Source: a phage
Assembly: GCA_021525805.1 (NCBI GenBank)
Contig: GCA_021525805.1_3940.1
DNA length: 64,000 bases
Reading direction: 5' to 3' (one strand)
Shown here: positions 4,540-64,000 of the stretch, piece after piece
How positions within the stretch are numbered: the first letter of the stretch is position 1
How the letters are laid out: each line of letters opens with the position of its first letter
Translations under genes and position numbers: made by a program
Notes under the pieces: model-generated
The model's database searches: none
What the model was told of the DNA's origin: nothing
Seen by the model: the letters and a program-made list of their open reading frames with translations, nothing else

Positions 4540-5892
4540 ATGTGGAATCCAATTGTTAATGTAGATATTACATTGAACACCGCAGGAACTACAAGAGAAG
4601 GTTTTGGGCTGCCACTATTTTTAGCTTCAACAGATAATTTTGAAGAAAGGGTGCGTGGCTACACTTCCTTAACTGAAGTTGCTGAAGATTTCGATGAAAG
4701 GTCTGCTGCATATAAGGCTGCTAAACAACTTTGGAGTCAGACTCCTAAAGTAACTCAGCTTTATATTGGGAGACGCGCTATGCAGTACACTGTATCAATT
4801 CCTGATGAGGTTACTGAGAGCACAGATTATTCTTTAACTGTAGCTGTGAGCGGTGGAGTTTCTCAACCATTCCAGTATACAGCACAGACATCAGATACCG
4901 CTGAGAAAGTGCTACAGCAGTTCAAAACACAGATTGAAGCTGACCCAACAATTAAAGATAAGGTCACTGTGAATGTAACTGGTAGTGCTGGTTCTGCCAC
5001 AATGATTATTACCAAAGCTGGTGATAATGACTTTGTGAAAGTAACAACCACAGCACAGACTGTATATATTGCAAGTACAACTGCCGATACAGCATCAACT
5101 GCTCTGGCAGCCATTGAAGCTTATTCTACTGACTGGTATTTCATTGCAGCAGAAGATAGGACTCAACAGTTTGTCTTAGCAATGGCTTCTGAGATTCAGG
5201 CTCGCAAGAAAATCTTCTTTACAGCTAACTCCGATGTAACAGCCCTGCAAGGTACAGAATTAGCCAGTGCAAATGATGTTCCAGCACAGCTTGCTAAGAA
5301 TATGTACACTCGTACAATTTGCTTGTGGCATCACACAGCAGCAGAAGATTACCCAGAGATGGCATACATTGCTTATGGTGCTCCATATGATGCAGGTTCA
5401 ATTGCTTGGGGTAATGCTCAGCTAACTGGTGTAGCAGCTTCTCTACAACCATCTAATAAGAGACCTCTGACAAGTATCCAGAAGTCAGCTTTAGATGCAC
5501 GTCACTGTAACTTTATTGACCTTGATGGTGGTGTTCCAGTGGTTCGTAGAGGGATTACTTCTGGTGGGGAATGGATTGATATCGTCCGTGGTGTTGACTG
5601 GTTAGAATCAGACCTGAAAACTTCTCTGAGAGACTTGCTAATTAACCAGAAGGGTGGTAAGATTACTTATGATGATACTGGTATTACCCGTATTCGTCAA
5701 GTCATTGAAACCTCTCTGCAAAGAGCAGTCAACAGAAACTTCCTGTCATCTTACACAGTTAATGTTCCTAAAGCCTCTCAAGTTGCTTTAGCAGACAAGA
5801 AAGCTCGTATCCTGAAAGACGTTACCTTCGCAGGTATCTTAGCAGGTGCTATCTTGGATGTTGACTTGAAAGGTACAGTGGCTTACGAATAA
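4540..5892 (+). CDS. Tail sheath protein (candidate)
   Basis: 450 aa ORF directly upstream of a ~150 aa tube-sized ORF, chaperone pair and tape measure; call by synteny. Confidence 0.5.
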   Translation: MWNPIVNVDITLNTAGTTREGFGLPLFLASTDNFEERVRGYTSLTEVAEDFDERSAAYKAAKQLWSQTPKVTQLYIGRRAMQYTVSIPDEVTESTDYSLTVAVSGGVSQPFQYTAQTSDTAEKVLQQFKTQIEADPTIKDKVTVNVTGSAGSATMIITKAGDNDFVKVTTTAQTVYIASTTADTASTALAAIEAYSTDWYFIAAEDRTQQFVLAMASEIQARKKIFFTANSDVTALQGTELASANDVPAQLAKNMYTRTICLWHHTAAEDYPEMAYIAYGAPYDAGSIAWGNAQLTGVAASLQPSNKRPLTSIQKSALDARHCNFIDLDGGVPVVRRGITSGGEWIDIVRGVDWLESDLKTSLRDLLINQKGGKITYDDTGITRIRQVIETSLQRAVNRNFLSSYTVNVPKASQVALADKKARILKDVTFAGILAGAILDVDLKGTVAYE

Positions 5893-5907: not shown

Positions 5908-6354
5908 ATGGCTATGTATCAGCAATATTCCCCTAAAGACGTTGTATGTAGCTGGAACGGCATTGCTATTGAAGGCTTTGCCCCAGACTCATTCTTGCGT
6001 CTACAGAGAACATCACCACTTATTACACCAGTTGTTGGTGCAGGTGGTCAAGTTGCTCTGACAAGAAATGCAGACAAGACAGGTACTATTGAGATTGAGC
6101 TAATGCAGACTTCTCTCTCTAACCAGATGCTTTCTGCAATTCAAGCTAAACAAGACAATATGGAACTTGAAGAAGATATCTCTTCTAACTTCGTAATCTA
6201 CGACCCATCAGGCTCTGTTCTGGCAACTGGTATTAACGCTTGGTTGCAGGAGTTACCACAGATTGAACTTGGTCGTGACCAGAACTCTAAAACTTGGATT
6301 TTTGGTTGTGAGAAGTTAGACTACACTTCTACAATTCCAGCGTCAAGTGTTTAA
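5908..6354 (+). CDS. Tail tube protein (candidate)
   Basis: 148 aa ORF between sheath candidate and chaperones; followed by strong terminator. Confidence 0.5.
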   Translation: MAMYQQYSPKDVVCSWNGIAIEGFAPDSFLRLQRTSPLITPVVGAGGQVALTRNADKTGTIEIELMQTSLSNQMLSAIQAKQDNMELEEDISSNFVIYDPSGSVLATGINAWLQELPQIELGRDQNSKTWIFGCEKLDYTSTIPASSV

Positions 6355-7068: not shown

Positions 7069-15066
<7,998 letters not shown>

Positions 15067-15068
15067 TA

Positions 15069-16235
15069 ATGGCAGTAGGTGAAATTCAAATTAGTGCCTT
15101 GCCTCAAGCAGCCTTACCAATTGACCTTAGTGATATCTTCCATCTTAAGCAGGGTATTGAGGATAAGAGATGTACTCTTGAGCAACTACTTGCTCCACAC
15201 TCAAGCCTAAGAAATAACCCTCATGGTGTTACTAAGACACAAATTGGTTTAGATAACGTTATTAATGCTCTCCAGTTAGTTGCTGAAAATAACTTATCAG
15301 ATATTGTTAATGTAGCTGAGGCAAGAGCAAATCTACAGATTATGTCTTCAGAAGAGGTTAATAATCTTATCCAACAACATATTAATGATAAGAGTAACCC
15401 ACACAATACAACTAAGGCGCAGGTTGGTTTAAGTAATGTCCAGAACTGGACAACATCTAACCTTTATAATGAAGATGCAGATAAGTATGCTACAGCAAGA
15501 GCAGTAAATAACTTGTACAAGGCTGTTCAGGCTTCTTATCCAGTAGGTACTATCCATCTCTCTATGAATCCTGCAAACCCCTCTACATATTTAATTTGTG
15601 GAGGTACTTGGGAGTTAGTTTCAAAAGGAAGAGCACTTGTAGGTTATGATAGTGCTTCTAGGCCAGTTGGTTCAACGTTTGGTTCGCAGACTACTGCACT
15701 GACAGTTAACAACATTCCTGCACATACTCACTCAGTATACGTCACTGGTGGTGGTCACACACATGGTGCAACAATGTCTATTAGTTCCTTTGATTATGGT
15801 ACTAAGACAACATCTAGCTTTGACTATGGAACTAAAACCACTAACACGACTGGTGCTCACACCCACTCAGTGAGTGGCTCAACGAACACAACGGGTGCAC
15901 ATACACATGGTTATATTACTGGTTATCAATCAACAGGTGCATCTGGAGATTGGGACAGGGATGGTCACAGAAATACCGTACAAACGGATAGTGCTGGGAA
16001 TCACTCACACTCAGTAAGTGGTACTGCTGCATCAAATGGTGACCATGCTCACACTTTAAATATTGGTTCACACACCCATGTAATTAATATTGGTTCACAC
16101 ACTCACAGTGGCAGTGTGAGTATTTCAACAACAGAGCACTCACACTCTGGTACAACTGGTTCTACAGGTTCTGGACAAGCATTCAGTATTGAACAACCGT
16201 CCTTTGTCCTGTATGTATGGCAGAGAACAGCTTAA
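15069..16235 (+). CDS. Tail fibre protein (short) with His-rich HxH tip
   Basis: C-terminal HTHS/HTHG/HSHS/HAHT motifs; tip region shares two near-identical DNA blocks with the long fibre gene. Confidence 0.6.
   Translation: MAVGEIQISALPQAALPIDLSDIFHLKQGIEDKRCTLEQLLAPHSSLRNNPHGVTKTQIGLDNVINALQLVAENNLSDIVNVAEARANLQIMSSEEVNNLIQQHINDKSNPHNTTKAQVGLSNVQNWTTSNLYNEDADKYATARAVNNLYKAVQASYPVGTIHLSMNPANPSTYLICGGTWELVSKGRALVGYDSASRPVGSTFGSQTTALTVNNIPAHTHSVYVTGGGHTHGATMSISSFDYGTKTTSSFDYGTKTTNTTGAHTHSVSGSTNTTGAHTHGYITGYQSTGASGDWDRDGHRNTVQTDSAGNHSHSVSGTAASNGDHAHTLNIGSHTHVINIGSHTHSGSVSISTTEHSHSGTTGSTGSGQAFSIEQPSFVLYVWQRTA
15839..16053 (+). repeat. Fibre-tip duplication, copy 1
   Basis: Blocks 15839-15915 and 15948-16053 are near-identical to 18474-18550 and 18583-18688; the ~30 nt between them differs. 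Confidence 0.7.
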
Positions 16236-16245
16236 TTTCTTTACA

Positions 16246-16266
16246 GGGGCTTTATAGCCCCTTTTA
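16246..16266 (+). terminator. Rho-independent terminator between the two fibre genes
   Basis: ggggct-ttat-agcccc then TTTT; preceded by TTTACA as in the early cassettes. Confidence 0.5.
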
Positions 16267-16281
16267 AGAGGAAAATTTATA

Positions 16282-18810
16282 ATGGCAGATTACAAGTTGA
16301 GTGAATTAAACTCAATCGATACAGTTCGTTCAGACGACCTTCTTCATATCAGGGTTAAAAAGAGACCTGAAATGCTTGGTGATGAAGACCGCCGAATGAC
16401 CTATCAAGATTTCTTAGCATCTTTTAAACTAGAAAGGTTTGTTCAGATTGCTGGTAGCACTATGACGGGTGACTTAGGAATTGTTAAGTTACTTTATGGT
16501 GGCAAGGTAGTCTTTGACCCTACAGGCTCTTCTGAGATTACTATGGGGGATGTTTTAAAGACTTTTAAAATTAATGCAAATGGTCTTAAACTAACTATTG
16601 CAGATGCTTCAAGGTCTGCAACTGTTTATCATACTCTTAATAAGCCAAGTCCTAATGAGCTTGGAATGAGAACCAATGAAGAGAACGATGCAAGATATGC
16701 AAGGCTTGCTGTAACAAACACATTCTCTAGAAATCAGCACATTCAAAGTGATGGTAACGCACTTCGCCTTAGAAACCAGATTGCAAATAATGCACAATAC
16801 ATTGAGGGTGTAAACCTAGATGGCTCAGCTAGATGGTGGGTTGGTATTGGTAGCAATGGCGATGATGCAGTAAGCTTGTATAACAACAAATACAACTCAG
16901 CAGTGACTGTTGCAAGCAATATCTCTGTTAATAAGTCTTTAGCAATTACTGGTCAAGTTCAGCCTTCTGACTTCTCTAACTTAGATGCTAGATACTTTAC
17001 TCAGACAGCAGCTAATCAGAGATTTGCGCAGCTAGTTGGTAATAACACCTTCAGTGGTTTAAACACATTCAGTAATAATGTCAATGTGAACTCTGATGGT
17101 GCTGCTATCATTCTAAAAAATAAAACGGTCAATGAGACTCTGTTCATCCTAGCAAAGGACAGTGAAAACAATAATTTGTGGTATATTGGTAAAGGTGATG
17201 TAACCTCTAATATCACAATTTATGATTACAAGGGGGACACTTCCATTAAATTAAACGCGTCTGGTGTAACATTTAGTAAGACTGTCAAAATCACTGGTCA
17301 AGTACAACCTTCTGACTGGACTAACATTGATTCTAGATACATTCCAGCAGCTACTTTGAATAATCTTCCTAAACTTAATGTGTCTAATACTTTCACAAAT
17401 ACACAGACTATTGTTGCTAACAATGAAGGGTTGATTGTTAAGAATTTGACACAAAATCAACCTTTGTATATCCGTGGCGTGGATACTGCGAATGTGTCTA
17501 GGTGGTGGTTAGGTGTAGGTGGCCCAGATTCTACTGATGTATCCTTAAACAACAGTTTCTCTGGGACTCAAATTACTCTTTCAAGGTCATTAATTACGGC
17601 TAACAAGAACTTTGCTATTACTGGTCAAGTTCAACCTTCTGATTGGTCTAACATCGATGAGAGATACTATAACAAATCATCCGCTGATAACCGGTATCTG
17701 AGAGTAAGGAGCACTGGATTCAATACTGGTGGTGCTGGTAAATGGGCTAAGATTGCTACTGTCAGTATGCCGCAAGCCACATCAACAGCGGTGATTGAAC
17801 TTTTTGGGGGGGCTGGATTTAACTTTGGCTCAGTTGACCAAGCCTGTAAAACAGAAATTGTTCTTAGGACAGGGAATGGTGACCCAAAAGGCTTAAATGT
17901 TGTTGCATGGAAAAACTCACCGAATACTGTTGTAAGTCAAATTGGGTATGTTAATACCTCTGGTGATAACTATGACATCTATTGCGCAGTTGGCAACTAT
18001 CAAAACGCTACGACAGCTAGGGTTCAGTCATCATCTAATGCAACAGTACAACTGTTTGAGTTTCCAGAGACATCTGACAACGCCCCATCTGATTATGTTG
18101 CTGGCACAATTGCTTACTATTACACTAGTCTCTTGAAGCCAAGCCCTTCAGATATTGGTGCATACACTAAAGCAGAAACTGACCAGAAGATTGCACAGGC
18201 AGTAAGTGACTCTACAGACCTTAATAAAATCTACCCAGTAGGTATTGTAACGTGGTTTAACAGTAATGTTAACCCTAATACAGCACTGCCTGGTCTAACT
18301 TGGACGTATCTGAACAACGGTGTTGGTAGAACTATCAGAATTGCAGCAGCAAATGGTTCAGATGTTGCTACAACTGGTGGTTCAGATTCTGTGACGTTAG
18401 CTGTTGGGAACTTGCCTTCACACACTCACAGTTTTTCTGCTACCACTTCATCTTTTGACTACGGAACAAAAAACACTAACACGACTGGTGCTCACACCCA
18501 CTCAGTGAGTGGCTCAACGAACACAACGGGTGCACATACACATGGTTATACTACTGGTGCGCAACCAAGTGGTACAAGGGGTGATTGGGACAGGGATGGT
18601 CACAGAAATACCGTACAAACGGATAGTGCTGGGAATCACTCACACTCAGTAAGTGGTACTGCTGCATCAAATGGTGACCATGCTCACAGTGTTGGTATTG
18701 GTGCTCACAGCCATACAGTGAGTGGTAACACTGGAAGTACAGGTTCTGGTTCAGCATTTAGTGTAACTAACCAGTTCTATAAGTTAATGGCTTGGGTGAG
18801 AACTGCTTAA
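16282..18810 (+). CDS. Tail fibre protein (long) with three internal repeats and His-rich HxH tip
   Basis: 842 aa; three ITGQVQPSDW(S/T)N(I/L)D.RY repeats; C-terminal HxH tip duplicated from/with short fibre. Confidence 0.65.
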   Translation: MADYKLSELNSIDTVRSDDLLHIRVKKRPEMLGDEDRRMTYQDFLASFKLERFVQIAGSTMTGDLGIVKLLYGGKVVFDPTGSSEITMGDVLKTFKINANGLKLTIADASRSATVYHTLNKPSPNELGMRTNEENDARYARLAVTNTFSRNQHIQSDGNALRLRNQIANNAQYIEGVNLDGSARWWVGIGSNGDDAVSLYNNKYNSAVTVASNISVNKSLAITGQVQPSDFSNLDARYFTQTAANQRFAQLVGNNTFSGLNTFSNNVNVNSDGAAIILKNKTVNETLFILAKDSENNNLWYIGKGDVTSNITIYDYKGDTSIKLNASGVTFSKTVKITGQVQPSDWTNIDSRYIPAATLNNLPKLNVSNTFTNTQTIVANNEGLIVKNLTQNQPLYIRGVDTANVSRWWLGVGGPDSTDVSLNNSFSGTQITLSRSLITANKNFAITGQVQPSDWSNIDERYYNKSSADNRYLRVRSTGFNTGGAGKWAKIATVSMPQATSTAVIELFGGAGFNFGSVDQACKTEIVLRTGNGDPKGLNVVAWKNSPNTVVSQIGYVNTSGDNYDIYCAVGNYQNATTARVQSSSNATVQLFEFPETSDNAPSDYVAGTIAYYYTSLLKPSPSDIGAYTKAETDQKIAQAVSDSTDLNKIYPVGIVTWFNSNVNPNTALPGLTWTYLNNGVGRTIRIAAANGSDVATTGGSDSVTLAVGNLPSHTHSFSATTSSFDYGTKNTNTTGAHTHSVSGSTNTTGAHTHGYTTGAQPSGTRGDWDRDGHRNTVQTDSAGNHSHSVSGTAASNGDHAHSVGIGAHSHTVSGNTGSTGSGSAFSVTNQFYKLMAWVRTA
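18474..18688 (+). repeat. Fibre-tip duplication, copy 2
   Basis: See copy 1. Confidence 0.7.
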
Positions 18811-27360: not shown

Positions 27361-27894
27361 TCAACTTAGTTTTGCAAACTCTCCGTGGAGTTTGATAGCA
27401 GCTTCACAGTAAGCTTTATGGGCTTCTTCAGGGGTGTCATGGTGACCTAAAAACATCTTCTTACCTTTATAACTTATCTGTGCGACCCACTTACCAGACT
27501 CCTTCTTAAGACTTACACCCTTGTACCCAGATTTATTGGTGACTGGTTTACCTTTATTCCAAGCACTTTGAAAGTCATCTGCTTCCCTTAAGTTTACAAT
27601 CCTGTTGTCAAGTGAGTCTCCGTTGATATGGTCAATGATACCTTTTGGCATCTTGCCATACACGTAAAGCCATGCGAGTCTGTGTGCTTTATGTGCTTTC
27701 TTGCCAAAATAGATACTAATCTGTTTATGACCACTTGAATCAGTCTGGATATTACCTGCCACCTTTCCTGCATAATTACTGTTAAAAACACTAACAGCTC
27801 TTGATTTACCTTCTCTACGAAGCCAAGTAAAGACCCCTGTTTCGGGGTCATAGTGCAGCAGCTCCTTTAAACGTTTTTGTAAAATTAAATCCAT
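27361..27894 (-). CDS. HNH homing endonuclease (paralog 1)
   Basis: HNH-type motif IDHINGDSLDNRIVNLR; paralogous to 37489-37980 with shared YDPETGVFTW segment; inserted between other genes. Confidence 0.6.
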   Translation of the reverse strand: MDLILQKRLKELLHYDPETGVFTWLRREGKSRAVSVFNSNYAGKVAGNIQTDSSGHKQISIYFGKKAHKAHRLAWLYVYGKMPKGIIDHINGDSLDNRIVNLREADDFQSAWNKGKPVTNKSGYKGVSLKKESGKWVAQISYKGKKMFLGHHDTPEEAHKAYCEAAIKLHGEFAKLS

Positions 27895-32079: not shown

Positions 32080-32097
32080 GTCTTTATAAATTTTACA

Positions 32098-32122
32098 AGC
32101 CTCCTTAGTTGGGGGCTTTTTA
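32098..32122 (+). terminator. Rho-independent terminator
   Basis: Hairpin agcctcc/gggggct followed by T-run. Confidence 0.5.
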
Positions 32123-47153: not shown

Positions 47154-47164
47154 AACTTGACAAG

Positions 47165-47551
47165 GTGGTGTGGGTCTTGATAGGCTTACATCACCTTTTT
47201 ATTTGGAGTTACATTATGGACTTGTGGCTTTATGTAGCAGTTTGTGGGATTGTATGTCTGATAATCTTATTTATTCTTGGGATAATGCGATTTAGAGACA
47301 TCATACAGTCAGATTTTTTGCCTGAGTTTGCCATGATAGTTGGAGTTATTGCACTTTGTGTCTTGGCGGTGTTCTATTCATACAAGACTGTGATATGGAT
47401 GAAGGCAAACAATTGTGTAAAAACTCATCAACATCGTGAGGTTACTTATTTTGTGAGTGTACTTAGTGGGAATACCACTGTACTTGTCCCACAAACTTCT
47501 GTAGAGTATCTTTACACATGTGATAATGGTAAAACTATATGGTGGAATTAA
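47165..47551 (+). CDS. Membrane protein
   Basis: Two hydrophobic helices; real start may be ATG at 47216. Confidence 0.3.
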   Translation: MVWVLIGLHHLFIWSYIMDLWLYVAVCGIVCLIILFILGIMRFRDIIQSDFLPEFAMIVGVIALCVLAVFYSYKTVIWMKANNCVKTHQHREVTYFVSVLSGNTTVLVPQTSVEYLYTCDNGKTIWWN

Positions 47552-55425: not shown

Positions 55426-55455
55426 TTGACAAGGGGCTTTGAAGCCCCTTAGAAT
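55426..55455 (+). promoter_or_regulatory. Sigma70-like promoter with hairpin in spacer
   Basis: TTGACA, 18 bp spacer containing ggggc-tttgaa-gcccc, TAGAAT. Confidence 0.45.
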
Positions 55456-56609: not shown

Positions 56610-56626
56610 TAAGTAATTTCTTAAAA

Positions 56627-56650
56627 GGCTGCTTCGGCGGCCTTTTTTAT
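56627..56650 (+). terminator. Rho-independent terminator (UUCG tetraloop)
   Basis: ggctgc-ttcg-gcggcc followed by TTTTTT. Confidence 0.6.
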
Positions 56651-56678
56651 TTGTATTTTGTGCAGAGTGCTGTATAAT
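56651..56678 (+). promoter_or_regulatory. Candidate promoter
   Basis: TTGTAT, ~16 bp spacer, TATAAT upstream of 56710 gene. Confidence 0.35.
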
Positions 56679-59960: not shown

Positions 59961-60746
59961 ATGGGTATTGTAAAAATCATCAATGGTGATATCTTTGCTG
60001 CATTTGATAAAGGTAAGTTTGACATCATTGGTCACGGTTGTAATTGTATGAATTTAATGGGTGCAGGTATCGCTAACAAGATTTCTAAACTTTACCCAAA
60101 AGCATATGATACCGATACAGAAGTTTACCTATATGCAGGTGGCATAGGTCACAAACCCTGTGAAAATTTACTGGGTAATTTCTCTGTAGCACGTTTAGAA
60201 CAAGGCCGTATAGCTAACCTTTACACTCAGCTTAAGACTGGTAAAGATGCCCGATACAGTGCTTTAGAGTCATCTTTGAAGCAGCTTAACAGATACTGTG
60301 AAGTCAATCAGTTGAAGAAAGTCGGGTTACCTATGATTGGTGCAGGTATTGGTGGGCTAGACCCTCAAGCCGTCACAGTTATCATTAATCAGGTGATGAA
60401 GAGTGTAGATGTTTATCTGTATGTCTACGAAGGAGAGATGTACCACAAGTTATGCTCAGGTTGGAATAACTACTGTGAACCAGAATACTTTGCAGGTGTA
60501 GTTGTGTTCACAGATAATGCAGTTACCCTCTTCAGACGAAGAAAAGGTAAGATACATCAGAGTAACCCTCCGGTTGAAAAGATGTCTCTAAGTAACGCTC
60601 TAGTTACCCACCTGTCGAAGAGCAATCACAGGATTGCAGTAACATTTGGTAGTGATGCAGACACTTATATCTATGCAAGAACTGATGAGGATATCGAGAC
60701 AGTTTTCTCTTCTCCAGAAGTTACCTTCTTAGACGCAAAGAACTAA
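59961..60746 (+). CDS. Macro-domain-like protein with C-terminal extension (candidate)
   Basis: N-terminal GDIFAAF...DIIGHGCNCMNLMGAGIANKI and later GLPMIGAGIGGLDP, resembling macro-domain ADP-ribose-binding glycine-rich loops. Confidence 0.4.
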   Translation: MGIVKIINGDIFAAFDKGKFDIIGHGCNCMNLMGAGIANKISKLYPKAYDTDTEVYLYAGGIGHKPCENLLGNFSVARLEQGRIANLYTQLKTGKDARYSALESSLKQLNRYCEVNQLKKVGLPMIGAGIGGLDPQAVTVIINQVMKSVDVYLYVYEGEMYHKLCSGWNNYCEPEYFAGVVVFTDNAVTLFRRRKGKIHQSNPPVEKMSLSNALVTHLSKSNHRIAVTFGSDADTYIYARTDEDIETVFSSPEVTFLDAKN

Positions 60747-60796
60747 GAAACTCTGTAGTATATTCACAATAGACTAAGCCTTTCTTATCTGGTAAA

Positions 60797-61020
60797 TTTT
60801 TCAGGTAAGGAGGGCTTTTTCATTTCAGATTTGTGCAGGTAGAGTTCTGTAGAGAAATCTATAGAGAAAATTTTGAACTCCAAAGAGAAAATTCATTTTC
60901 AAACTGTGCAGGTAATCTCCAAAGAGCTTTTTCATTTTCAAAACGTGCAGACCCCGCTCAGGTCGGGCAAGAAAAATCATTTTAGAATTGTGCAGGTAGG
61001 TGGGTGTAGGTGGGGATGTC
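60797..61020. repeat. Iteron-like array of short direct repeats in non-coding region
   Basis: Four copies of TCATTT(T)CAAANYGTGCAGGTA-like 22-mer, three AGAGAAA(A/T) copies, two CTCCAAAGAG copies, two GTAGGTGGG copies. Confidence 0.6.
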
Positions 61021-61178
61021 GCCATTTCTCACAAGGCTACCACATCTGAAAATAAAAGTCAACAGAAAAATTTGTAGCGGATTGAAAAATTATTCTTGAT
61101 TGTAGTTCTGTTTTGTGGTAGTCGCGCGCACACCCGTTCATTTCCCAACCTTACAAAAAAAATATTTAATAAAAACCG

Positions 61179-61207
61179 TTGACACGCCAAACAAGTTGAC
61201 GTACTAT
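61179..61207 (+). promoter_or_regulatory. Sigma70-like early promoter
   Basis: TTGACA, 17 bp, TACTAT preceded by A/T-rich tract; drives first small gene. Confidence 0.6.
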
Positions 61208-61256
61208 CTGCATCAGACGGGCAAGCAAGCCCACTTCCTAAACTGGAGAATCGAAA

Positions 61257-61463
61257 ATGCTTTATAGTCGTGAATTGATGGTTACAACTAACGTTAACAC
61301 AAAGGTAAAACGTTTTTACATGCAAGTATGTGGCGCATGGTCCAGAATATCAGAAGCTGACTACTGCAACTATGTAGAAACGGCTATTAATTCTAATTGC
61401 TACCTTACAAGAAATACAAGAAAGCACATAAGACAGACAGCAATTTACTACTACGATAGATAA
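61257..61463 (+). CDS. Small early protein
   Basis: 68 aa; conserved leader ctaaactggaga...aaaatg upstream. Confidence 0.4.
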   Translation: MLYSRELMVTTNVNTKVKRFYMQVCGAWSRISEADYCNYVETAINSNCYLTRNTRKHIRQTAIYYYDR

Positions 61464-61468
61464 AGTAC

Positions 61469-61504
61469 TTTACAAGGGGCTTATAGTTCGATAAAGTAAG
61501 CCCC
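61469..61504 (+). promoter_or_regulatory. Promoter-hairpin cassette R1
   Basis: TTTACA, 17 bp, TAAAGT overlapping hairpin ggggctta/taagcccc, then conserved leader and RBS. Confidence 0.5.
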
Positions 61505-61549
61505 AGATAAAGAGCTTTACTAACTAACCTTAAACTAGGAGATTCAAAA

Positions 61550-61930
61550 ATGGCTTATCGTGCACCTAAATTCATCAACAAAGGCAACTTTCGCAACGCA
61601 CTGGAGAAGTCACTTGATGAAAATTTTAAAGGTAATATTATCGTTGTTCACGCATTCAATTTTAAGTATGATGTAAACGGGAATAGAATCAACCATTACA
61701 CGGCAACCATGTTAGATGGTACTCTTTCAAGTGAAAAAGCCGTACTGAATGCACTGGCAGGACGCGGAAAAGTATTAGTAAGATGCGATAAGAGACGTTA
61801 TCAGGGCGGCGCATATGGTTACGATGATGCTGTTTACCATCTTGAAAATATGGGCTATTCAGTGGAAAAAGCTGGAGTGTCTCAAATAATCGGCAGTGAC
61901 GGCTATGTGACAATTTTCAAAATTAACTGA
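61550..61930 (+). CDS. Small early protein
   Basis: 126 aa behind cassette R1. Confidence 0.4.
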   Translation: MAYRAPKFINKGNFRNALEKSLDENFKGNIIVVHAFNFKYDVNGNRINHYTATMLDGTLSSEKAVLNALAGRGKVLVRCDKRRYQGGAYGYDDAVYHLENMGYSVEKAGVSQIIGSDGYVTIFKIN

Positions 61931-61938
61931 TAAAGTAC

Positions 61939-61974
61939 TTTACAAGGGGCTTATAGTTCGATAAAGTAAGCCCC
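61939..61974 (+). promoter_or_regulatory. Promoter-hairpin cassette R2
   Basis: Near-identical to R1. Confidence 0.5.
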
Positions 61975-62018
61975 AGATAAAGAGCTTTACCACTCAATCC
62001 TAAATTGGAGATTCAAAA

Positions 62019-62276
62019 ATGGCTATTATCAAAAACGTTGTAGTTCCTGCAAAAACTCGTGATGACGCTCGCATCATGGCGAAAAAGGTAGGTGGGAAAG
62101 TGATTGACAATGGAAAACAATCTGCTGTAAGATGGGGCGTGAAGGCTGATAAACAACTAACCTTAAAACGCAGTTCAGACAATCTTTTTAAAGGTGTAAA
62201 ATCACTCGGTAAAGTTAACGTCTTTACCAAAAAAGGCTATAAAATGCACTTATCATTAACTGGCAATTTAATCTGA
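62019..62276 (+). CDS. Small early protein
   Basis: 85 aa behind cassette R2. Confidence 0.4.
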   Translation: MAIIKNVVVPAKTRDDARIMAKKVGGKVIDNGKQSAVRWGVKADKQLTLKRSSDNLFKGVKSLGKVNVFTKKGYKMHLSLTGNLI

Positions 62277-62284
62277 TAAAGTAC

Positions 62285-62320
62285 TTTACAGGGGGCTTAA
62301 AAGCTGATATCTTAAGCCCC
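62285..62320 (+). promoter_or_regulatory. Promoter-hairpin cassette R3
   Basis: TTTACA, 17 bp, TATCTT; hairpin ggggcttaa/ttaagcccc with a different loop. Confidence 0.5.
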
Positions 62321-62364
62321 AGATAAAGAGCTTTACCACTAAATCCTAAATTGGAGATTCAAAA

Positions 62365-62877
62365 ATGAAAACTGTAGATGCTACCTTTGAAGTTGTAAAA
62401 GAAAAATTCACTATTATTTATGAAGCTGTCAATTGCTTTGAAGCAAGCCATAATCTTGATAATTGGGAGTTTACAGATAACCATCAAGGCGGTGTGACGA
62501 TTAAAAATCCTAACTGTCAGCGCAATGATTTTAAATATGCAATCCCTTTAAATTATAGCCTTAAGCAGCTTTCTAGTGACTATGCAAAACAAGGCCGGGA
62601 AAACCCATCAAAAGAGGCTTACATCAGCTTACAAAAAGAACTAGAAAGGGATTTAGAGGCTTCAGAATACAGCCTTGCCGCGAAAGTTATCGATGCAAAC
62701 GGTAGCACGGTTTTAGAAAGTTTTTATATTGGTTATGCTTTCGATTGGCACTATAGTGACGGCGATGATTTAGATGATAGACTAAAAGAAGAGGTGAGCA
62801 ATTCAGGCGCAGAAACTGAAGTACTAGAACGCTTGGAATCATTAAAAGATTCAGTGCTGAATATCTTTAAAAACTAA
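62365..62877 (+). CDS. Early protein
   Basis: 170 aa behind cassette R3. Confidence 0.4.
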   Translation: MKTVDATFEVVKEKFTIIYEAVNCFEASHNLDNWEFTDNHQGGVTIKNPNCQRNDFKYAIPLNYSLKQLSSDYAKQGRENPSKEAYISLQKELERDLEASEYSLAAKVIDANGSTVLESFYIGYAFDWHYSDGDDLDDRLKEEVSNSGAETEVLERLESLKDSVLNIFKN

Positions 62878-62886
62878 ATAGATTTC

Positions 62887-62921
62887 TTCACACGGGGTTA
62901 TCAAGCTGATAAGATAGCCCC
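62887..62921 (+). promoter_or_regulatory. Promoter-hairpin cassette R4
   Basis: TTCACA, 17 bp, TAAGAT; hairpin ggggttatc/gatagcccc keeps pairing via a G-U position. Confidence 0.45.
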
Positions 62922-62969
62922 AGATAAAGAGCTTTATTCAAATCAACCCTTAAACTAGGAGATTCAAAA

Positions 62970-63266
62970 ATGAAATTATCAAATAAAGTTAGGGAAAATC
63001 TAAGCAAGTTACTTAACAAAATTGATTTTATCGAGACATCAAGAAATACTCATGAGGTTATGGAATGGTTACACGGGAAAATAAATGGCCGTCGTGTAGT
63101 GATTTGTTTATGGAATAGTTGCAGGGAGTATAAAAAACCTGTATTACAAATTAATGTTTATGACGATACTTTTAAAAGTCCAGTAAAGTCTAAAAGCGAT
63201 TTATTAGAATCTTATGAGATATCTGTAAATGGTAAAATCTCACAAAAAGAGGCAATACCATGTTGA
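62970..63266 (+). CDS. Small early protein
   Basis: 98 aa behind cassette R4. Confidence 0.4.
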   Translation: MKLSNKVRENLSKLLNKIDFIETSRNTHEVMEWLHGKINGRRVVICLWNSCREYKKPVLQINVYDDTFKSPVKSKSDLLESYEISVNGKISQKEAIPC

Positions 63267-63592
63267 TGACTGGTGTCACCGCAATTATAGCCATTTTCGC
63301 GCTTTATAAGGCATATAAAGCCTATAATCTAGCAGATAAGGCAATCACACAACAGGTTAGCAATAGCCTTGTAGAGAGCTTTCTAGGGCGTTTAAGTGAT
63401 GAACAAATAAAACGGTTAGAAATGAGCTTCAGATTTCAATCAAAAACTTATCAAATCAGCGACATTTTCAAAGATGATTTTCAGCTTGTCGATGATTATA
63501 ACTCTCTGATAAATGCTTTAAATATCAGTGACTTAAAAGATTACTACGCTGTAATTGTTCAAGAAATGAGCAAACGAAAACAAAGTGCTTGA
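63260..63592 (+). CDS. Small early protein
   Basis: 110 aa, coupled to previous ORF, no cassette of its own. Confidence 0.35.
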   Translation: MLMTGVTAIIAIFALYKAYKAYNLADKAITQQVSNSLVESFLGRLSDEQIKRLEMSFRFQSKTYQISDIFKDDFQLVDDYNSLINALNISDLKDYYAVIVQEMSKRKQSA

Positions 63593-63626
63593 CACTGGTT
63601 TTTAGATAAATTAAATTACACATCAA

Positions 63627-63680
63627 CGGGGAGGCAATAACCTCCCCACTAAATAAAGTCCTAAACTGGAGATTCTGAAA
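63627..63680 (+). promoter_or_regulatory. Hairpin-leader cassette R5 (divergent hairpin sequence)
   Basis: Hairpin ggggagg/cctcccc in the same position; conserved leader ctaaactggagattctgaaaatg. Confidence 0.4.
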
Positions 63681-63953
63681 ATGTATACTACTAACAACGG
63701 TCGTACTTTAAATGCCACTCTACGTCACTATGTAGACGGTGTGATGCACTTTGAGGATTTACGGGCTGAACAACATATCTTAGATTGGCAAGTCGCAGGA
63801 CTCCAAAAAACTGTTACGGGATACGGTAAAAAGATTCCAACCAGTTGGAAAGTTCACTACAAAGGCCGTTTGCGCAGAATTTATCAGGATGTTTACAGTA
63901 ATAGCGCATCAAGTTACATCATGGTAAAAGGTAAAAAGCTGCATTTAATGTAA
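63681..63953 (+). CDS. Small early protein
   Basis: 90 aa behind cassette R5. Confidence 0.4.
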   Translation: MYTTNNGRTLNATLRHYVDGVMHFEDLRAEQHILDWQVAGLQKTVTGYGKKIPTSWKVHYKGRLRRIYQDVYSNSASSYIMVKGKKLHLM

Positions 63954-63958
63954 AGTAC

Positions 63959-64000
63959 TTTACAAGGGGCTTATAGTTCGATATAGTAAGCCCCAGATAA
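63959..64000 (+). promoter_or_regulatory. Promoter-hairpin cassette R6 (cut by window end)
   Basis: Same sequence as R1/R2 with one loop substitution. Confidence 0.45.

Follow-up and report, generated by a model that had tools for sequence, protein, structure and literature searches.

Repeated cassettes of a sigma70-like promoter motif, a stem-loop and a leader at the start of a small-gene array in a Felixounavirus phage

The phage studied here is a Felixounavirus (a Felix O1-like myovirus of the Ounavirinae; top matches at about 90% identity, 252 records), and positions 61179-64000 of the window, that is, of the whole stretch of 64,000 nucleotides that was analysed, are the start of an array of small genes with unknown functions. 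Judging by the sequence, nearly every small, putatively early gene is placed behind the same cassette of about 90 bases, which in class A contains a host-type promoter within a conserved stem-loop and a fixed ribosome-binding leader. We consider it probable, for the explanation taken as a whole, that the early-gene array of this Felix O1-type phage begins here and that its promoter-hairpin modules work by the scheme described for the PeSL cassettes of T4-type phages. The original prediction of an array of small genes behind repeated cassettes was confirmed from the sequence and its open reading frames with small corrections. It missed that there are two cassette classes, that a second, lower stem takes in the stop codon and the -35 together with the first bases of the transcript, and that the hairpin is inherited with the upstream gene.

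Class A comprises R1-R4 and R6, where one stem-loop contains the -35 TTTACA and, after a spacer of 17 bp, the -10 TAnnnT. Class B comprises R0 and R5, where TTGACA-17-TAAATT is followed 10 nt downstream by a hairpin that is predicted to lie at the 5' end of the transcript. The leader, CCTAAAYTGGAGATTC-N4-5-ATG, is common to both classes. Each cassette reaches from the stop codon of the upstream gene to the SD and start codon of the gene that follows, and the stop codon is either the first TAA of the lower stem or directly before it. All seven array proteins fall in PHROGs of unknown function (7/7), and none of the seven has a Pfam match. The features are as follows.

61179..61256, + strand: R0, class B-like, the first promoter of the array; -35 TTGACA 61179-61184, -10 TACTAT 61202-61207, weak hairpin GGGCaagcaaGCCC 61220-61233, leader CTAAACTGGAGAATC 61238-61252
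61257..61463, + strand: gene 1, 68 aa, PHROG 5293; the R1 lower stem starts with its stop codon TAA, 61461-61463
61461..61549, + strand: R1, class A; lower stem 5' arm 61461-61472, -35 TTTACA 61469-61474, upper stem-loop 61476-61504, -10 TAAAGT 61492-61497, predicted start at about 61505, lower stem 3' arm 61508-61519, leader/SD 61531-61549
61550..61930, + strand: gene 2, 126 aa, PHROG 4495; not in Felix O1
61931..62018, + strand: R2, class A; -35 61939-61944, upper stem-loop 61946-61974, -10 61962-61967, lower stem 3' arm 61978-61989
62019..62276, + strand: gene 3, 85 aa, PHROG 5089; not in Felix O1, duplicated in the related genome L145
62277..62364, + strand: R3, class A; -35 62285-62290, upper stem-loop GGGGCTTAA..TTAAGCCCC 62292-62320, -10 TATCTT 62308-62313 with TGn just before it, lower stem 3' arm 62324-62335
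62365..62877, + strand: gene 4, 170 aa, PHROG 4190
62878..62969, + strand: R4, class A; -35 TTCACA 62887-62892, upper stem-loop GGGGTTATC..GATAGCCCC 62894-62921 with one U.G pair, -10 TAAGAT 62910-62915, lower stem 3' arm 62925-62936
62970-63266, + strand: gene 5, 98 aa
63260-63592, + strand: gene 6, 110 aa, overlapping gene 5
63589..63680, + strand: R5, class B; -35 TTGACA 63589-63594, -10 TAAATT 63612-63617, hairpin GGGGAGGcaataaCCTCCCC 63628-63647, leader 63660-63680
63681..63953, + strand: gene 7, 90 aa, PHROG 3436
63951..64000, + strand: R6, class A, cut by the window end; -35 63959-63964, upper stem-loop 63966-63994, -10 TATAGT 63982-63987; a complete counterpart lies in Bas63 (L002) at about 7856-7941

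The leader had been proposed to precede seven small ORFs. In the form CTAAAYWGGAGATTC..ATG it stands before six of them (starts at 61257, 61550, 62019, 62365, 62970 and 63681), while the seventh, at 63260, overlaps the end of the preceding gene and has neither leader nor cassette. This last ORF, gene 6, is nearly always co-inherited with gene 5 among the relatives compared. The leader pattern has 5 matches against 0.01 expected by chance, CCCCAGATAAAGAGCTTTA has 4 against 0.01, and TAAAGNNCTTTA has 8 against 0.23; within the 64-kb window the cassette motifs are confined to 61179-64000. A sigma70-like promoter motif (-35, about 17 bp, -10) is recognised in all seven cassettes. It had been said to overlap the hairpin in six, but does so in five (R1, R2, R3, R4 and R6), where TTTACA or TTCACA and a 17-bp spacer are followed by TAAAGT, TATCTT, TAAGAT or TATAGT; R5 and R0, in contrast, carry the hairpin downstream of a promoter that reads TTGACA, 17 bp and then TAAATT (R5) or TACTAT (R0). 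R1, R2 and R6 are indeed near-identical, R1 being equal to R2 across 60 nt and R6 different at 1 nt.

How well is the promoter kept? We compared 134 unique copies of class A taken from about 30 related genomes: 132 have TTTACA as their -35, and the spacing to TAnnnT is 17 bp in 126 of the 134 copies and 18 bp in 7 others. The -10 has thirteen hexamer variants, with T1, A2 and T6 kept in all, and its invariant TA is placed in the otherwise variable hairpin loop; this promoter-like conservation could partly stem from RNA constraints, or the reverse, because the -35 and -10 bases overlap the stems. More exactly, the TTTA of the -35 is inside the lower stem, the last base of the -10 is paired in the upper stem, and the TA of the -10 is unpaired in the loop. 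In class B, the -35 variants TTGACA, TTGCAA, TTGACT and TTGATT and the -10 variants TAAATT, TAAAGT, TAGTAT and TAATAT are separated by 17 bp, and the distance from -10 to hairpin is constant at 10 nt. The class B promoter looks stronger than that of class A. Since no published transcript-end map was found for any Ounavirinae phage, we infer promoter activity and use, the start site, hairpin function and terminator activity from the sequence.

The class A hairpin is predicted to be two-tiered, with a lower stem of 11 bp that holds the stop codon and the -35 and an upper stem of 9-10 bp, separated by a 3x3 internal loop. The fold is predicted for R1-R4, and the folding energies of class A range from -20.8 to -24.5 kcal/mol, with z = -2.9 to -4.1 versus shuffles (-23.5 kcal/mol and z = -3.5 in R1; z = -4.1 in R2, -3.4 in R3 and -2.9 in R4). 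The fold of R0 is no better than shuffles (z = -0.76). The pairings that had been read from the hairpins, ggggcttaa/ttaagcccc, ggggttatc/gatagcccc with U.G at position 5, and ggggagg/cctcccc, are all correct. Is there selection on structure, as had been argued from them? This claim is upheld by an alignment that takes 84 unique copies of class A from about 30 related genomes: standard pairs fill 97.6% of the pair cells versus 90.8% after shuffling, and the covariation score is 0.204 versus 0.086, values reached in 0 of 500 shuffles, with independence overstated by such tests because the copies are related by descent and gene conversion. Slid registers are paired at 31-59% only, and five pairs have changes on both sides. 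The lower stem covaries as well (G:C to U:A; U.G to U:A or C:G), the palindromy within each motif being broken, and in the more distant Erwinia and Cronobacter relatives (Kolesnikvirus copies) the otherwise invariant GGGG/CCCC stem becomes GGTG/CACC. The large A:U to U:A flips may stem from a few replacement events only.

In which strand does the hairpin fold? The upper stem has 37 G.U cells and 1 A.C cell. Of 86 unique elements, 57 are more stable when folded as the sense strand (p = 0.006 by the Wilcoxon test, and 1e-5 for the upper stem considered by itself), and in 29 the antisense fold is at least equal, a moderate asymmetry. The G.U pairs lie in the sense strand, and the comparison of sequences favours folding there. 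One alternative is that the inverted repeats act as duplex DNA, either as operators of a dimeric phage regulator that shuts off the early promoters or as cruciforms that sense supercoiling. TAAAG-NN-CTTTA does flank the core promoter, over the -35 and about +3 to +14, which are typical repressor positions, and Felixounavirus copies hardly vary in the GGGG/CCCC ends of their upper stem. However, stem sequences differ within one genome, each with its own complementarity, and the internal palindromy of TAAAG..CTTTA is lost while the pairing between the motifs is kept. Where a stem has a mismatch, it is G.U on the sense strand and would be read as A.C on the opposite one, and loops of 9-14 nt disfavour cruciform extrusion. 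A role as duplex DNA is very unlikely.

What might such a folded RNA do? The class A two-tier hairpin might be a processing site of RNase III, or of a phage endoribonuclease, as between the T7 early genes. An RNase III-type architecture is present in the predicted fold, where the lower stem, the internal loop and the upper stem make about two helical turns between genes, with covariation in both helices; the lower stem is selected, and it would be superfluous in a terminator or in a hairpin that simply protects a 3' end. Folded for comparison at positions that we take to be RNase III sites, the T7 early intergenic regions form hairpins in which a 4x5 internal loop separates a lower stem of 5 bp from an upper stem of 9-10 bp. 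These sites (R0.3, R0.5, R1, R1.1 and R1.3) are likewise two-tier internal-loop hairpins between small early genes transcribed by the host polymerase, and minor promoters lie close to several of them. But the class A loop is large, 9-14 nt versus 4-5 in T7, the sequence is unlike the T7 sites, and the lower stem, AU-rich and lying over the stop codon, would be opened by terminating ribosomes. T7 drives its entire early region from three left-end promoters and relies on processing, whereas here each gene has a predicted promoter of its own within the hairpin. E. coli RNase III substrates typically have two helical turns, internal loops limit cleavage to one strand, and the cuts so restricted leave protective 3' hairpins (PMC1540722). 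One cut in or near the internal loop would similarly leave a protective 3' hairpin upstream and a downstream 5' end close to the promoter-initiated one. Processing of this kind is rather unlikely in our judgement; it would refine the preferred explanation and does not contradict it.

Another alternative is that the stem-loops are terminators or attenuators of upstream transcription, as proposed and partly shown for the PeSLs of RB49/phi1, and each gene would therefore be transcribed almost only from its own promoter. A PeSL stem-loop put between a promoter and lacZ cut expression about like rrnB T1 (Arbiol 2010, PMC2839356), the position directly after each stop codon fits, and overlaps of promoters and terminators are reported to be common in bacteria (Fletcher et al. 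2026 preprint, 10.64898/2026.08.19.745784). The class A hairpin, however, has loops of 9-14 nt and is followed by AGATAAAGAG; since there is no U-tract, it was rejected as a canonical intrinsic terminator. A terminator scan found no + strand terminator inside the array, and the selected lower stem and the internal loop are not features of terminators. The promoter-coupled terminators of that preprint are alike in that one DNA stretch is both the hairpin of the upstream RNA and the promoter of the next tandem gene, but they differ in geometry, with a hairpin over the -35, a T-tract directly before the -10 and termination about 10 bp before the start (10.64898/2026.08.19.745784). Class A was also tried as an element of this type and rejected, as it lacks a T-tract and its upper hairpin extends from past the -35 up to -1. 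For the cassettes, termination as the main role is rather unlikely.

The combination of -35 and hairpin had been noticed outside the array too. This recurrence was found again and extended: TTKACA abuts a GC-rich hairpin at 16240, 32092, 47157 and 55426 (+) and at 27364 (-), 5 sites versus 0.44 expected (P ~1e-4, a Poisson estimate).

55426..55454, + strand: promoter with a hairpin in its spacer; TTGACA, AAGGGGCTttgaAGCCCCTT, TAGAAT at 18 bp
16240..16268, + strand: TTTACA abutting the hairpin AGGGGCTttatAGCCCCT, then TTTT
32092-32122 (+), 47157-47205 (+) and 27364-27336 (-): sites similar to that at 16240

By its sequence, the 16240 site looks like a terminator with an overlapping -35. At 16240, 32092 and 47157 the -35 plus hairpin precedes a T-run, which speaks for the terminator reading, and these three sites are closer than class A to the promoter-coupled design.

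How far do the cassettes extend among relatives? They are kept in at least three Ounavirinae genera (Felixounavirus, the phiSUSP1 group and Kolesnikvirus), at 1594 places in 290 records, and the neighbouring phosphatase goes down to 63-68% amino-acid identity across this range. A blastn search with a cassette found no similarity to any other kind of phage; the organisms mirror the Felix O1-like matches plus Erwinia phages, and two distant matches that were fetched are both Kolesnikvirus (Ounavirinae). Relatives also gain, lose, duplicate and reorder gene-plus-cassette units, with junctions chimeric within cassettes, in agreement with the shuffling that had been suspected. There are presence and absence of units, one tandem duplication and a 9/16 order swap. 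Gene 4 is missing in the related genomes L126, L133, L140, L143 and L150, with deletion junctions at three different positions inside the cassette. The hairpin type tracks the upstream gene: the TTATC/CTAAC/CTATC type follows gene 4 in 19 of 19 cases, and where gene 4 is absent gene 5 carries the hairpin of gene 3.

Could the cassettes be young duplicates homogenised by gene conversion, with a functionless hairpin? The annotation of phage XTG1 calls class B hairpins minus-strand 'Rho-independent terminators', and these would then be the real features. The near-identity of R1, R2 and R6 in the window fits, and concerted evolution among the copies is evident, hairpin types having been swapped between orthologous positions. 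Yet the cassettes have persisted over the genera in which the phosphatase diverged, the stems covary while the loops vary, no minus-strand genes converge on the hairpins, and the G.U pairs favour the + strand. We regard this explanation as extremely unlikely.

The preferred reading, a scheme like that of the PeSL cassettes, can now be compared with its model. PeSL cassettes are known in RB49/phi1, PST/T4 and nt-1/KVP40 (Arbiol et al. 2010, PMC2839356; Comeau et al. 2014, PMC4122927). Clustered among small variable genes, they run from a stop codon through a sigma70 promoter and a GGGG..CCCC stem-loop to an SD and an ATG, with the stem-loop mostly between -35 and -10 or over the -10, and just downstream of the -10 also listed (PMC2839356). 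Promoter activity, terminator or attenuator activity of the stem-loop, and mini-circles that arise when neighbouring cassettes recombine are further characteristics of PeSLs. The resemblance, pointed out in the original prediction, extends to every sequence-level feature. The array has the upstream stop, a sigma70-like promoter with N17, the GGGG..CCCC stem-loop, the SD and the ATG; the hairpin overlaps the spacer and the -10 in class A and is just downstream of the -10 in class B; the conserved stretch is about 100 bp. The cassettes lie close together in a plastic region whose small genes mostly have unknown functions, and indels, replacements and reorderings among close relatives are bounded by them, with crossovers inside that leave chimeric cassettes. 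Unlike PeSLs, they belong to an Ounavirinae lineage with a family A polymerase and an 86-kb genome, their hairpin continues into a lower stem that covaries and surrounds the entire promoter, they form two classes with the hairpin in the promoter (A) or at the predicted transcript 5' end (B), and their leader is far more uniform and common to both classes. As blastn detected no homology to T4-type PeSLs and the genome is not T4-type, the relation is one of analogous design, not of shown descent. Myoviruses grouped near Felix O1 have an intergenic sigma70 promoter, TTGACA-N17-TAgAAT, in 5-6 repeats in a short putative early region, with bases around the hexamers unusually well conserved (PMC4309531, 2015). 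They are like the present array in having such a repeated promoter in such a region, but no stem-loop, shared leader or cassette-bounded shuffling is described for them, and there is no sequence relationship.

How would the array be expressed? In class A the same 60 bases hold a sigma70-type promoter motif (TTTACA, 17 bp, TAnnnT) and the predicted two-tier sense-strand stem-loop, with the lower stem formed by the stop-codon/-35 region and the first bases of the transcript and the upper stem by the spacer and the discriminator. Host RNA polymerase would start at the A directly after the class A hairpin. Because of this start, the hairpin would be absent from its own transcript and present only in upstream read-through RNA, where it would be a 3'-end element of the upstream gene. 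Its role is most likely 3'-end protection, or that of a processing or attenuation site, and the promoter would re-initiate the expression of the next gene behind the uniform leader. In class B, the GGGGAGG hairpin 10 nt past the promoter would stabilise its own mRNA. E. coli 5'-terminal stem-loops of the ompA type protect mRNA from 5'-end-dependent decay, and the class B hairpin would be like them if the start is as predicted, since it begins 10 nt after the -10 and so about 3 nt from the predicted 5' end. In Felix O1, whose genome paper noted these sequences as direct repeats only, the array ORFs 16, 20, 21 and 22 peak at 5 min by RT-PCR, which counts for an early scheme of self-contained modules, and the array ORFs 14, 17, 19 and 23 were placed at 25 min instead of 5 min, which counts against it.

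What is new here is the two-tier architecture of the class A hairpin. Comparison of the related genomes shows the 60-90-bp homology of the cassettes to be a recombination substrate that moves whole units of leader, ORF and promoter/hairpin, and almost every small gene of the array would be a self-contained expression module.

The region 61100-64000 matched 252 phage records by megablast, nearly all of them Felix O1-like myoviruses with Escherichia, Salmonella, Shigella or Citrobacter as hosts. The closest was Escherichia phage JohannRWettstein (Bas63), with 90.6% identity over the full length of the region. Since the Felix O1 terminator t13 is found at 60776-60817, the array of small early genes downstream of it corresponds to the ORF14-21 region of Felix O1. 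In complete relatives the array is about 6 kb long, begins with 500 bp of non-coding DNA behind the gene of a macro-domain 'phosphatase' and ends at a canonical terminator. Its part in the window holds seven plus-strand ORFs of 68-170 aa, whose products had no match in Pfam and matched only families of unknown function in PHROGs. The features discussed are as follows.

56647-56665, fifth, looser copy of TCATTTTCAAAnTGTGCAGGTA, following the terminator at 56623-56646
59961-60746, gene of a 261-aa protein, the 'phosphatase' of relatives, with a Macro domain (PF01661, Pfam E = 1e-7)
60776-60817, terminator t13
60820-60995, four direct repeats of approximately TCATTTTCAAAnTGTGCAGGTA, 40-70 bp apart, with 0-1 mismatches
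61179 to the window end, plus strand, seven cassettes (R0-R6), the first promoter being at 61179
24770-24730 and 23196-23157, minus strand, a long hairpin present twice, about 1.5 kb apart, with an 18-19-bp stem, CATCACTTAAGAGTCTT..AAGTGATG
15860-15876 and 18495-18511, minus strand, small hairpin CACTCACtgaGTGGGTG, identical at both sites, within two paralogous tail-fibre-like genes

The Macro-domain gene adjoins the early array on its upstream side, and it may have a role in ADP-ribose metabolism or counter-defence. The TCATTTTCAAAnTGTGCAGGTA repeats sit in the 500-bp gap between t13 and the first array promoter and may represent iterons, an array of operators or a promoter motif specific to the phage; a looser pattern search gave 8 occurrences against 3.5 expected, weakly above chance. 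The CACTCACtgaGTGGGTG hairpins appear to correspond to the nucleotide repeats noted in gp76/gp77 by the Felix O1 genome paper.

According to the original prediction, all seven small ORFs follow a conserved leader. Six of them indeed have CTAAAYWGGAGATTC-N4-5-ATG, while the ORF at 63260 (gene 6) has no cassette and overlaps the previous gene; the seventh cassette, R6, is cut off by the window end. Three cassette motifs occurred 5, 4 and 8 times against 0.01, 0.01 and 0.23 expected by chance, and they are confined to the array within the 64-kb window. A promoter scan found TTTACA, TTCACA or TTGACA, a 17-bp spacer and TAnnnT at all seven cassettes, and the hairpin sequences had been quoted exactly. 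The overlap of promoter and hairpin, claimed for six cassettes, was seen in five (R1-R4 and R6, here class A). In R5 the hairpin lies downstream of the promoter, and R0 is weakly of the same kind (class B). No plus-strand terminator was found in the array by a terminator scan. Outside the array, TTKACA abutting a GC-rich hairpin occurs at five further window sites against 0.44 expected, in agreement with the claim that the same logic recurs there.

For comparison, about 30 related loci were retrieved with the macro-domain phosphatase protein upstream as anchor, and thus without selection for the cassettes themselves; XTG1, Bas63 and Felix O1 were added with their annotated regions. One cassette used as blastn query matched 1594 places in 290 phage records. 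The organisms were the Felix O1-like set found by megablast, joined by the phiSUSP1 group and by 29 records of Erwinia phages, and two distant matches that were fetched both proved to be Kolesnikvirus. A 15-mer scan of IMG/VR was abandoned as a source of relatives, as it gave mostly chance matches in unrelated contigs. Five metagenome-assembled Felixounavirus contigs of IMG/VR (L130, L131, L132, L137 and L146) end within the array or in the non-coding gap before it, probably because the repeated cassettes break assemblies. As such ends are spread over the repeats, they were rejected as markers of a physical genome terminus beside the array.

Is the promoter signal real when it lies within a hairpin? 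Of the 134 unique copies of class A, 132 have TTTACA as -35 hexamer, 126 have TAnnnT at a spacing of 17 bp and 7 have it at 18 bp. The -10 hexamer takes thirteen forms, with T1, A2 and T6 constant in all. The invariant TA is located in the hairpin loop, which is variable elsewhere; RNA pairing is therefore hard to invoke for its conservation, while a promoter fits. Class B promoters are clearer than those of class A, and their -10 keeps a constant distance of 10 nt to the hairpin. The usual discriminator is 6-7 nt long. With this length, a class A transcript would start at the A that directly follows the final C of the stem, and a class B transcript about 3 nt upstream of the hairpin.

RNA folding of class A revealed a further element that the original prediction missed. 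An upstream block TAAAGTACTTTA, which includes the stop codon and the TTTA of the -35, pairs with a downstream block TAAAGAGCTTTA to form a lower stem below the GGGG..CCCC hairpin. The predicted fold has an 11-bp lower stem, a 3x3 internal loop, a 9-10-bp upper stem and a 9-14-nt loop, with energies of -20.8 to -24.5 kcal/mol (z = -2.9 to -4.1). Covariation was assessed in 84 unique class A copies, aligned gap-free at equal length after trimming 0-3 central loop bases; a first MAFFT alignment of the hairpins was discarded, as a gap within the 3' arm of the GGGGTTATC type put pairs out of register. Of the 1680 pair cells, 97.6% hold standard pairs where shuffles give 90.8% (0/500), and the covariation score is 0.204 against 0.086 (0/500), in tests that are not tree-aware; the copies share ancestry and exchange segments, so that independent events are fewer than the cell counts suggest. 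When the pairing register was slid, 31-59% were paired. Double-sided changes occur at five pairs, one of them in the lower stem (G:C to U:A), where a U.G is also replaced by U:A or C:G in some copies. The Kolesnikvirus stem has GGTG/CACC where Felixounavirus has invariant GGGG/CCCC. Selection on structure, as first argued from the hairpins of the window, is thus borne out. TAAAG-NN-CTTTA was considered as a palindromic operator and rejected: palindromy within the motif is lost in variants and complementarity between motifs is retained. A permissive Rfam search of 60500-64000 gave no known RNA family, only two sub-threshold chance matches (SpF51 and mir-22).

There is a further question, on which strand the fold acts. 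Read on the plus strand, the non-Watson-Crick cells of the upper stem are 37 G.U against 1 A.C, and U.G is the commonest state of one lower-stem pair. The dominant class B form, GGGGAGGG/CCTTCCCC, has one G.U on the plus strand. Of 86 unique elements, 57 fold with the better energy as the plus strand (p = 0.006, and p = 1e-5 for the upper stem by itself). This moderate bias points to sense RNA, with plus-strand single-stranded DNA as an alternative. In XTG1 (KT184316), several short hairpins in and near the array are annotated as minus-strand Rho-independent terminators (2761-2781, 5373-5393, 6238-6258 and 7792-7812), of which at least 5373-5393 is a class B hairpin. No minus-strand genes converge on them, and their wobble pairs are those of the plus strand, so the annotation is probably wrong.

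What might the class A hairpin do? It ends at the predicted -1 of its own promoter and would therefore be present solely in RNA coming from upstream, where it would be a 3'-end element of the upstream gene, serving 3'-end protection, processing or transcription attenuation. Having no U-tract and a large loop, it is not a canonical intrinsic terminator. Processing by RNase III is a serious candidate: the lower stem, which is under selection, and the internal loop bring the helix to about two turns, and T7 early intergenic regions, folded around what we take to be the RNase III sites, adopt a similar two-tier shape. The T7 RefSeq record annotates no RNase III site features. Attenuation is also possible by analogy, since the stem-loops of promoter-early stem-loop (PeSL) cassettes in the T4-type phage RB49 lowered expression of downstream lacZ (Arbiol et al. 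2010, PMC2839356).

The shuffling of cassettes that had been envisaged was found when the ORFs of all arrays were clustered, as gains, losses and swaps of a gene together with its cassette. Genes with their own cassette vary independently of one another across arrays. For example, Felix O1 is without genes 2 and 3, five genomes lack gene 4, one has gene 3 twice, the order of genes 9 and 16 in L124 is reversed compared with XTG1 and L138, and several genes are private to one or few genomes. The cassette-less genes 6 and 11, by comparison, are almost always inherited with their upstream neighbour. The type of hairpin goes with the gene that precedes it: gene 4 is followed by the TTATC/CTAAC/CTATC type in 19 of 19 cases, and where gene 4 is absent, gene 5 bears the gene 3 hairpin. 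Deletions of gene 4 left chimeric cassettes with junctions at three different places: L143 has it within the AGATAAAGAGCTTTA block, L126 has it within the linker, and L133, L140 and L150 have it at the leader or beyond. Recombination within the homology of the cassettes has therefore removed gene 4 on more than one occasion. Besides, L145 carries at 7349-7520 an ORF-less unit between two identical gene 3 copies, in which CTTTACA and the hairpin follow immediately on leader and ATG (ctggagaatctaaaATGCTTTACAtgggg), apparently a junction formed through microhomology of the leader end with the lower stem.

Taken together, the original observation is real and its interpretation is supported; worth noting as additions are the covarying lower stem, which encloses the whole promoter in RNA structure, and the mapped recombination junctions. 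The proposed resemblance to the PeSL cassettes of T4-type phages holds in every sequence-level respect, both in the components of the cassettes and in their association with indels. However, the cassettes here are not in a T4-type genome and have no homology to T4-type PeSLs by blastn. Judged by sequence, they would be a PeSL design in another phage subfamily, not a demonstrated relative. The Felix O1 genome paper gives the 57-bp and 39-bp sequences as direct repeats only, lists promoters without them and calls the course of transcription unknown. Among the papers searched, we found none joining PeSL with Felix O1-group terms, and no Felixounavirus transcript map, including after that paper. 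For PAK_P1-like phages, early promoters that recur but have no hairpin are described (PMC4309531), and for bacteria, overlapping promoters and terminators of a geometry different from class A (10.64898/2026.08.19.745784).

A wider scenario, which we hold to be rather improbable as a whole, is that the 60-nt class A element would act in DNA as a sigma70 promoter and in read-through RNA as a processing or insulation signal, giving processed and primary mRNAs a common 5' end and leader. With the shared leader, early genes of Ounavirinae would then be standardised, recombination-ready cassettes, swapping host-takeover or anti-defence genes across genera without a dedicated recombinase.

Felix O1-type phages are widely used in Salmonella typing, biocontrol and therapy, and the cassettes provide a concrete predicted early-promoter map for the whole subfamily. 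They may also serve as natural insulated expression modules for phage engineering, and they probably account for assembly breaks and for the mis-annotation of minus-strand terminators. They carry the PeSL concept over to phages other than the T4 type, and do so with statistics that support the RNA structure. That otherwise 90%-identical genomes differ in gene content mainly in the early region is explained by the cassettes, which also mark the sites where accessory early genes, likely for host takeover or counter-defence, are swapped.
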